Shown: one piece after another, positions 9,801-12,800 of the stretch
Layout of the letters: each line of letters opens with the position of its first letter
Position numbering within the stretch: position 1 is the stretch's first letter
NCBI GenBank assembly: GCA_048940445.1
Contig: JBHLON010000050.1
Coordinates: forward strand, 1 to 17,519
Origin: Promethearchaeota archaeon
GTDB lineage: Archaea; Asgardarchaeota; Lokiarchaeia; Sigyniarchaeales; SOKP01
Direction of reading: 5' to 3'
DNA length: 17,519 bases
Notes under the pieces: generated by a model
Database searches by the model: none
Seen by the model: only the letters and a program-made list of their open reading frames with translations
Told to the model about the DNA's origin: nothing
Translations under genes and position numbers: made by a program

Positions 9801-12800
9801 ATATCTCTCAAAAACTCCAAGAATTTATATCCAAAATAGAAAGAACAAATGGTATTAGCTCAAAAGATTTAGCAAATGAAGGTATTTTTGTAAGTCACGA
9901 AACGTATTCACCGGCTCGAGGCGGAAGTGCTGAATCGGAATTAAGAGCTTTGGAAAATACTTTTGGAGAAGATGCCTATAACATGGTAATTATTAACACA
10001 AAAGGATATACTGGTCATGCGATGGGTGCAGGTATAGAGGAGGCAGTTGCAATCAAATCATTAGAAAAAGGAAAGATACCTCCAATCGCAAATTTAAGAA
10101 GGATTGATCCAAACTATTCAAAATTCAACTTTTCAAAAGGATTAAATGAAAGAAAAAAATATGCCTTGCGATTTGCCGCAGGTTTTGGATCGCAGTTGGC
10201 TATGGTTTTATTCCGCTTAATAACATTTAATAACCGTTTTACAAATCCAAATTACCAAAAATGGCTTGAAAGTATTGGAGGGGGTAAAAAGCAAATATTT
10301 ATGGACGGAAGGGTACTAAAAATGACCACAGAACGTATTTCTACCGAAAGAGCTACTAAAATATCGTCCATTGCATCAGAAATTCCTCAGAAATCAATTC
10401 CTTCCAGAGCAAGTGAAATACTTAAAGAGATTAAACAGATAATAGCATCGAAGACTGGATATGATCTAGTTGATATTGAAGAAACTTATGATCTAGAGGA
10501 AGATTTAGGAATTGATACAGTAAAGCAAGCAGAAATATTCGGGGAAATTCGTGAAAAATGGGGAATTGAAGTTGATGATTCATTTAACATAGCAGACTAT
10601 CGAACCATTCAAGCAATCGTTCTAATGCTAAATGAATTAGACAAAAGTCTTACTTCCGATAAAAAATCTCTTAGTTCAGATGATCTTTCAATTGAAAATC
10701 AATTAATTAAAATTATTTCTGAAAAAACAGGATATGATATTGAAGACATTGATATTGAATTTGATTTAGAAGAGGATTTAGGTATCGATACAGTAAAACA
10801 AGCTGAGATTTTCGGGGAGCTACGGAATAGTTTAAACGTCACGGGGGAAACAGAAATTAATTTAATTGGGTTAGGAAGTATCAAGGAAATAGTCCAAAAA
10901 ATACAAGAATTGATGATTAATCATAATATTGAGCTTAATGTTAAAATCACTTCGCAAGATATAGTATCACCACGTGAACTATTTGATGAAGTAACTCACG
11001 TAGTAAAAAAAATAATAGCTGAAAAAACAGGCTATGATGTTATTGATATTGATGATACTTATGATTTAGAGGAAGACTTGGGGATTGATACTGTAAAACA
11101 AGCTGAAATATTTGGAGAATTACGAAATTATTACAAGCTAGAAGATTCTACAGAAATAAACATCTCTGATATTCGTACTCCAAAAGAAATTTCTAATTTT
11201 ATAAAACAGCTTATCAGTGACAGATCTAAAGCGGGGGAAATAAGTATAAATGTTCTCGAAGAGAGGGGTAAACCTGAAAAGAAATTAAAAAAACATGATG
11301 AAGATCAAATCTACGTATCACGAGTCATACCTTCTCGTGTTTTTAAGCTAAACACATTAAAACAGGCTCCAAACTTCAAAAATATTGACACGTTAATCCT
11401 TAACATTAATTCTGGGTTGTCAAATTATCAAAATTTAAGCGAGAATTTTGCGAAATATGGTCTAAACATTCGAATATTTAATGTCAGTGGGGAAGAAAAT
11501 TTTCCCAAAGATTTGAAAAATAAAACCGTAGATTTTCCATATGATGTAAATTTCAAGATACTTATATTAGTGATTCCAGAGAATAATCAATATACGATTG
11601 ATGAAAGTTTAAATGTTTTTGACAGCCTATTTATGATTTTTCAGTCGTTGAATTTATCAGAATTCGAAAAAATCTTGGTTATTTCTCCAGAAACCACTTT
11701 TGGATGGAAAACAGGAGCCAATCCGCTTTCAGCTAGTATAGGCGCTTTCATAAAGACTATTAATCGGGAGTTTCAGATTCCCATCAAGCTTATATCCTCA
11801 AAAGATCAAGAACAGATTTCTCAAGAATTTCTAAGATGGGATAAAATTGAGGAAATTTCTTATGAAAATGATCATCGCATTACCCTTCTAAGAAAGAAAA
11901 TAGAAAAACTCCCAGAGGAGAATCCATTAACAATAAATGAAGAAGATGTATTACTAGTAACAGGAGGTGCACAAGGAATCACATATGCATGTATAAATGA
12001 ATTAACTAACCATGTAAAACCGCAATTAGTACTCTTAGGATTAGCTCCCTATGACGATACACTATTTCAATATTTACAAAGTACCACTGATATGTTGAGT
12101 GAGAAAAAGCAAGAATTAATCAATGAATTGAAATTGAAATATGAGAAAGTAACTCCTGTAATGATTAAAAAGGAGTGGAAGCAATTTCTTGACAAATTAG
12201 ATACACTTCGTAATATTGAGAATTTGAAGAATAAAGGTCTTTCAGTAGAATACTATGCAGTAGATCTTACAAATATTGAAGAAGTAAAGAAAGTCTTCCA
12301 AATAATTAATGAGCAAAATAAAAATCCCATTACAATTGTAATACACGGTGCTGGTATTGAACAATCAAAAAGTTTCATGAAGAAACACCTAAATATAGCT
12401 CATAAAATTGTTGACGTTAAAATAGGAGGGTTATCAAACATTTTAAAGTTTATAAAATTACAAAAAGTCAAATACTTTATTACTTTTTCCTCAGTTGCAG
12501 GACGTTACGGGAATCAGGGGCAAATAGATTATGCTTTTGCAAATGCGTACTTATCACGTTTAGCTTGGGAATTCAACCAACGTAAGATTGCCTTTCTCAG
12601 TTTTGATTGGACTGCTTGGGCAGATATTGGAATGGCAACTCAAGGTTCTACGCTTCAAATCCTTACCCAAGCGGGAGTTGACCCTGTTCCTCCCCAGATT
12701 GGAGTCAAAATCTTTAGAACATTAGTTCTCAACAAATTCACAGGAGAATATATTATAGCTGGGAAGTTAGGAATCTTTGAGGAAATGCTTAATATTGAGG

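Follow-up and report, generated by a model that had tools for sequence, protein, structure and literature searches.

The serine that carries the 4'-phosphopantetheine (Ppant) arm of acyl carrier proteins (ACPs) is treated as invariant, and its replacement by threonine serves as an inactivating control in E. coli (PMC3340395). Among the synthases that depend on this arm, the closest described relatives of the system considered here are the "Type R" secondary lipid synthase clusters of Shulse and Allen, known from Roseiflexus, Koribacter, Solibacter and Elusimicrobium, whose product is uncharacterised and whose description never mentions threonine (PMC3098273), and the bacterial polyunsaturated fatty acid synthases of the PfaA type (TIGR02813, with PfaD and PfaE). 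Archaea have been described as lacking fatty acid synthase of type I (FAS I), and almost always ACP and ACP synthase as well (bioRxiv 2024.07.05.601840). The present work concerns a stretch of 17,519 nucleotides from a Promethearchaeota archaeon, an Asgard archaeon of the Lokiarchaeia type that shares its order with Ca. Harpocratesius repetitus (assembly GCA_048940445.1, contig JBHLON010000050.1), referred to below as the window, in which a single gene encodes a megasynthase whose three ACP domains all carry Thr at the position of Ppant attachment and which ends in a 4'-phosphopantetheinyl transferase (PPTase) of its own.

The domains of this megasynthase, all in a single open reading frame, follow one another in the order enoyl reductase (ER), ER, ketosynthase (KS1), acyltransferase (AT), second ketosynthase (KS2), three ACPs, ketoreductase (KR), dehydratase (DH) and PPTase. 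With Type R it shares the succession of KS, AT, second KS, tandem ACPs and KR, corresponding to the KS-MAT-CLF-ACP(3-6)-KR order (MAT, malonyl acyltransferase; CLF, chain-length factor), as well as linked PPTase and acetyl-coenzyme A (CoA) carboxylase genes, the PPTase lying directly downstream either in fused form, as in the Asgard synthase, or as a separate next gene, as in three bacterial members of the family (L086-L088). It differs from Type R in the fusion of the PPTase and of two FabK-like ER barrels, in its archaeal host, and in a "CLF" that keeps Cys-His-His. Proteins from metagenome-assembled genomes (MAGs) of Roseiflexus sp. are close homologues on the same KS2 tree (KS2 47% identical) and also have Thr ACPs. 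By architecture, linkage and these Roseiflexus homologues, the family appears to correspond to the Type R clusters.

The likeness to PfaA lies in the KS-AT-tandem ACP-KR-DH backbone, the FabK-type ER and the dedicated PPTase, and TIGR02813 is the best NCBIfam match of the synthase, although the score remains below the cut-off (894.6 against 1010.1 bits). The Asgard synthase departs from PfaA in having an extra KS between the AT and the ACPs, in being a single polypeptide and in carrying Thr instead of Ser, and separate PfaB/C partners with a FabA-type DH are missing, no other such KS, AT or DH having been found in the genome. The fungal FAS alpha chain likewise has a self-priming C-terminal cis PPTase, to which the second lobe matches by sequence, but it has a different domain order and ACP type; its acceptor is Ser. 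Canonical ACPs and peptidyl carrier proteins with AcpS or Sfp PPTases (PDB 1f80, 4mrt, 5y08) agree with the present system in fold, in motif position and in the catalytic residues of the PPTase, and differ from it in the acceptor, which in the Asgard synthase is Thr.

All three ACP repeats pass the curated cut-off of PF00550 (32.7, 26.3 and 23.6 against 20.8 bits), and the motif Thr aligns with the Ppant Ser of the PigH, Thermotoga, Aquifex and AcpM carrier proteins. Measured against the first repeat, the others have only 44-52% identity, yet 19 residues around the Thr form a stretch that does not vary among the three. An alignment-based AlphaFold2 model of the second ACP (pLDDT 86.6), which was used instead of a poor single-sequence fold (pLDDT 48), has helix II beginning at the motif Thr, and the 50 matches listed by Foldseek for this model are without exception ACPs or ACP complexes (probability 1.0; TM mostly 0.7-0.8, with E-values only 2e-3 or weaker). 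An initial annotation of the window had placed a GIDT motif in all three ACPs, had seen no other Ser-type ACP, and had described the motifs of AT, both KS, KR, DH, ER and PPTase as intact. The first two statements hold, no Ser-type ACP motif being present in any frame of the window; the third holds apart from the ER, since only the second of the two FabK-like barrels keeps the catalytic-His motif, and the catalytic motifs of both KS, AT, KR, DH, the second ER barrel and the PPTase are also conserved in homologues. The residue at the attachment position is Thr in three of three ACPs, where the canonical definition asks for Ser: on sequence and modelled fold, the ACP-like working of the domains appears to stand, while their membership of the canonical Ser-ACPs does not.

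That the Thr is a rule of the family under selection, and not a symptom of decay, is strongly supported by the comparison of homologues. A pooled set of 208 homologous proteins from Asgard archaea, Thermoplasmatota, Chloroflexi, Myxococcota and other groups, most of them retrieved through domains other than the ACP, contains 517 distinct intact ACPs, of which 498 have Thr, 19 have Ser and none has any other residue at the site; the initial annotation would have taken a majority of Ser among close homologues as a mark of decay, and the reverse was found. A search seeded with KS2, in which the ACP sequence played no part, returned 343 Thr against 4 Ser, and the picture was unchanged when 50%-identity representatives were searched with KR-DH as the seed (a KS1-seeded search was swamped by multi-module polyketide synthases (PKSs) and was not used). 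Thr is near-fixed across phyla and in both prokaryotic domains, among proteins whose KS2 identities reach as low as about 46%. An ACP-seeded scan of GTDB found 56 loci, in Asgard archaea, Thermoplasmatota, Halobacteriales and Myxococcota-like bacteria, in which the site is encoded by 146 Thr codons of all four types (ACC 54, ACG 42, ACT 30, ACA 20) and by 2 Ser codons, so that neither chance nor sequencing error can account for the Thr. This bears out the earlier argument for selection from the use of two codons in diverged repeats; the GIDTVKQ-like motifs that the initial annotation had mentioned for uncharacterised bacterial PKS-like proteins are indeed present in Roseiflexus, other Chloroflexi, Myxococcota and Leptospiraceae.

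The one circumstance that could speak for decay, sequencing error or a codon recoded as Ser is the patchy occurrence of the cluster, which is found in 14 of the 154 genomes of the host order and in none of the 41 others of the genus. Such an origin of the Thr has next to no chance of being correct, given an open frame of 3509 codons with conserved catalytic motifs, conserved synteny, and the recurrence of this Thr, under all four of its codons, in hundreds of ACPs; as judged from the sequences, it is already refuted by the family-wide conservation.

On the KS2 tree (a quick tree with a midpoint root), an all-Ser pair (L045 and P0148) and a group of Ser-Thr-Ser proteins are each nested inside well-supported Thr clades, and a third Ser protein forms a long, unplaced branch. 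Because of this nesting, the tree indicates that Thr has reverted to Ser at least twice. In the Ser-Thr-Ser proteins, of which Ca. Heimdallarchaeum has an example, one fused PPTase occurs alongside both residue types in the same chain. These repeated reversions and mixed proteins show that Ser works, and Thr is generally the more hindered nucleophile, so it might be supposed that Thr is taken up only poorly and in part as a substrate and acts as a built-in brake, most ACPs being left apo while the Ser revertants are fully active. We regard this as very improbable, because near-fixation across phyla and both prokaryotic domains would be hard to keep for a handicap, and a brake of this kind would itself still require a Thr-linked Ppant. 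Seven loci with bacterial titles (L038, L040, L042, L047, L053, L055 and L060, given as Klebsiella, Enterobacterales or Proteobacteria) are probably mislabelled MAGs; L038, L040, L042 and L053 group with Myxococcota or Thermoplasmatota sequences on the same tree.

Two other positions of the ACP are highly conserved, Lys+2 (512 of the 517) and Thr-21 (507 of the 517, otherwise mostly Ser), while the 517 ACPs contain no conserved Ser or Cys elsewhere. It could be proposed from these positions that the ACP is modified on another residue, such as Lys+2, which stands two positions after the motif Thr, or the Thr in the TGY motif that lies upstream, or alternatively that the motif Thr bears another group, such as phosphoribosyl-dephospho-CoA. 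The TGY-type motif is, however, shared with the Ser-type PigH ACPs, and Lys+2 with Ser-type relatives, so that both look inherited; in the modelled fold the motif Thr occupies the place in helix II where the attachment residue canonically stands; and the linked enzyme is a PPTase. A prosthetic group of the CitX/MdcG type was rejected because the genome has no CitX or MdcG match. Taken as a whole, modification at another residue or by another group is decidedly unlikely.

Some members of the family contain degenerate ACP-like repeats in which the hydroxyl has mostly been lost together with the downstream motif; along with the free ACP-fold proteins of Heimdall genomes described below, these may be regarded as natural controls for an unused site. 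Such hydroxyl-less repeats are interleaved with intact Thr ACPs in P0317, P0323, P0330-P0332, P0338, P0343, P0346 and L017. Elsewhere in the family, P0179, L084 and L085 begin with an additional N-terminal ACP, and P0368 and P0379 have an additional one that separates AT from KS2.

The fused PPTase is a two-lobed domain of about 210 amino acids which scores 65.3 bits with TIGR00556 (cut-off 45.35) and has a profile match to Sfp spanning both lobes (E 5e-21). It contains the His, Asp-x-Glu and W-x-x-K-E-x-x-x-K motifs, and its His, Asp and K-E...K...G are the residues that are invariant among fused copies. The co-occurrence of the Thr motif with this PPTase clade, to which the initial annotation had drawn attention, is borne out: the PPTase is either fused or, in all three of the unfused bacterial members checked (L086-L088), is encoded by the next gene and is related to the fused domain. 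An ESMFold2 prediction of the ACP-PPTase complex gave 0.41 against 0.00 for the best control, with runs agreeing in at least 93% of contacts and a partner pLDDT of at least 73; this mark is reached by 58 of 80 solved and 2 of 110 mismatched pairs, but at 0.60 or less by only 7 of the solved pairs and by both of the mismatched ones. The predicted complex lends weak support to the pairing, and its signal may reflect likeness to the solved Sfp/AcpS complexes.

In the host genome (93% complete), the PF00550 matches are the three ACPs only and the PF01648 match is the fused domain only, and five related Loki and Hod genomes searched for both families, including the closed 4.36-Mb chromosome of H. 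repetitus, likewise have no other ACP or PPTase. On these genome searches, no substrate other than the ACPs of the synthase is evident for the fused PPTase in the Loki and Hod genomes, and no carrier other than these ACPs for the KS and AT. The initial annotation had left the choice open between a Thr-linked Ppant and the use of CoA esters or an external carrier; the searches weaken the external carrier, and the balance inclines towards the Thr-linked arm.

Several observations nevertheless weigh against a Thr-linked Ppant. E. coli ACP(S36T) is reported to be non-functional and incapable of receiving Ppant (PMC3340395); archaea are reported to build fatty acids on CoA without ACP (bioRxiv 2024.07.05.601840); of the 24 genomes labelled bacterial that hold the synthase, 22 have both FabF and a normal AcpP; and some Heimdall genomes encode a free ACP-fold protein. 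In addition, no PPTase residue was found that separates Thr-only from Ser-containing members, the homologues are kin, so that the counts of Thr and Ser measure conservation and not independent events, and a search of the open literature, with subscription journals mostly outside its scope, returned no paper on the phosphopantetheinylation of Thr (nor a relevant one on the GIDT motif itself or on Asgard FAS or PKS). The first four of these observations are the ones in favour of an alternative in which the Thr ACPs would be unmodified and the synthase would run on free CoA thioesters or an external carrier, with the ACP repeats acting as scaffolds or docking modules. This alternative is unlikely, because it leaves unexplained both the tolerance of the site for Thr and Ser only and the presence of an intact PPTase, fused or adjacent, and because the Loki and Hod genomes offer that PPTase no other substrate. 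The free Heimdall proteins (L072-L082, for example L075:2921-3163), which have about 80 amino acids and are unlinked to the synthase, have no Ser or Thr at the Ppant position but Lys, Glu, Asp and similar residues, and were rejected as external carriers for want of the hydroxyl; by eye, their gene adjoins one of a luciferase-like oxidoreductase type. The possibility that the bacterial holders simply lack FAS II was rejected on the same 22 genomes, and the retention of a dedicated PPTase beside a housekeeping system is as would be expected if the housekeeping enzyme cannot take Thr. The E. coli S36T result, for its part, indicates that canonical AcpS rejects Thr; it concerns AcpS and not this PPTase clade.

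With these points taken into account, we put the probability at roughly three in four that the cognate PPTase installs O-phosphopantetheinyl-threonine and that the enzyme is an iterative fatty-acyl synthase. The Thr would be a working attachment site because the column is limited to Thr and Ser, the catalytic motifs are intact, the link to the PPTase looks obligate and no alternative carrier was found; in addition, the KS Cys and the AT Ser, both conserved, would need a thiol arm, which supports a modified ACP. A chemical precedent is provided by ApbE, which attaches FMN to Thr or Ser through the same Mg-dependent attack on a pyrophosphate, the cofactor being phosphoester-linked and drawn from a nucleotide pyrophosphate donor; its fold, cofactor and acceptor motif are unrelated. 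In the proposed mechanism, the fused Sfp-type PPTase would take Ppant from CoA and attach it to the hydroxyl of the Thr with which ACP helix II begins, and both the covalent adduct and the preference of the PPTase for Thr are deduced from the considerations above. The co-located biotin carboxylase set would supply malonyl-CoA, from which the AT would load malonyl onto the holo-ACPs; the two KS, KR, DH and FabK-type ER would then extend and reduce the chain iteratively, and the neighbouring alpha/beta hydrolase would probably release it. Considered on its own, a long-chain fatty acyl is the rather probable product. A possible reason for the Thr is that it keeps the synthase and its PPTase orthogonal to the AcpS and FAS II of most bacterial holders.

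Table 1. Features of the window, with positions counted from its first nucleotide
Feature	Position	Strand	Remark
Biotin protein ligase	1138..1899	-	Flanking gene
Acyl-CoA carboxylase carboxyltransferase	2298..3869	+	Sole copy found in genome
One-gene iterative synthase (predicted), 3509 aa	3878..14407	+	Gene-caller start; probably ATG at 3890
Two FabK/PfaD-like ER barrels	3920..5962	+	GGH motif in second, not in first
KS1, PfaA-like	6050..7447	+	Cys-His-His intact
AT	7559..8464	+	GHS and AFHS motifs; malonyl-type by established motif rule
KS2 ("CLF" of Type R)	8825..10237	+	Cys and both His positions conserved across family
ACP domain 1	10427..10621	+	Thr2214 (ACA, 10517-10519) in Ppant column
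ACP domain 2	10700..10897	+	Thr2305 (ACA, 10790-10792); modelled ACP bundle, Thr at helix II start
ACP domain 3	11000..11203	+	Thr2405 (ACT, 11090-11092) in Ppant column
KR and PKS-type DH	11951..13621	+	KR with catalytic Tyr; DH with its His, and with Glu where Asp is usual
Fused Sfp-type (two-lobed) PPTase	13775..14362	+	No variation of catalytic residues among 129 fused copies
Alpha/beta hydrolase, candidate chain-releasing thioesterase	14365..15207	+	Syntenic in Asgard loci
Biotin carboxyl carrier protein	15211..15738	+	Flanking gene
Biotin carboxylase	15787..17337	-	True start probably ATG at 17268

The features of the window are collected in Table 1. Because its Cys and both His positions are kept across the family, KS2, which also has an unusual His-Glu-Thr-Tyr motif, may be an active enzyme and not an inactive chain-length factor. 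In bacterial members without a fused FabK-type ER, an acyl-CoA dehydrogenase-like gene lies directly upstream (L086:2672-4309, L087:4299-5942, L088:4317-5984), and P0367 has it as a fusion; its product may replace the missing enoyl reductase or act as a desaturase. The carboxylase subunits and biotin ligase of the locus, which form an acetyl-CoA carboxylase set, are the only copies found in the genome, and this arrangement of six genes, the megasynthase being one of them, recurs in Loki, Hod and Heimdall loci. Positions 1-1122 of the window hold a thiolase-like gene with Pro at the position of the thiolase catalytic Cys, and an 82% identical paralogue is present on contig C4. A non-coding leader of about 220 nucleotides stands upstream of both the carboxyltransferase (2077-2297, forward strand) and the biotin carboxylase (17293-17508, reverse strand), with 77-82% identity; on contig C13 (5199-5348) it occurs a third time, ahead of a FabK-like gene, and the leader is also kept upstream of the carboxyltransferase in loci L006-L009. 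It looks like the shared promoter or operator of a lipid regulon, rather than the ends of a mobile element.

The patchy occurrence of the cluster noted above suggests transfer or loss, and not a core trait. In view of its absence from the other genomes of the genus, the contig may have been mis-binned, but its composition is within range, at rank 11 of 185 chunks, and contig C13 has the leader too; the conclusion about the Thr is in any case independent of the bin.

Acyltransferases that could use the product have matches in the genome, one PlsY-like (PF02660, C20:57249-57773) and one PlsC-like (PF01553, C104:74113-74487), and LipA, which would point to a supply of lipoate, has none over the cut-off; these profile results fit a possible use of the product in ester lipids. 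A wider proposal, which we hold tentatively and at somewhat less than even odds, is that the family is a cross-domain family of megasynthases with an orthogonal Thr-linked Ppant installed by a dedicated Thr-accepting PPTase, and that the fused Asgard form is a complete ACP-dependent type I FAS which may feed the PlsY- and PlsC-like acyltransferases. The Thr at the Ppant position is itself real and selected, and its phosphopantetheinylation would, if confirmed, be a new form of a known modification. A natural Thr-linked Ppant would then revise the rule that only Ser is used, genome-mining tools may be misjudging Thr ACPs as dead, and the PPTase and ACP would constitute an orthogonal pair for labelling and pathway engineering. 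With its synteny across the Loki, Hod and Heimdall lineages, the locus of carboxylase and megasynthase is relevant to the lipid divide and to the question of how eukaryotes arose.
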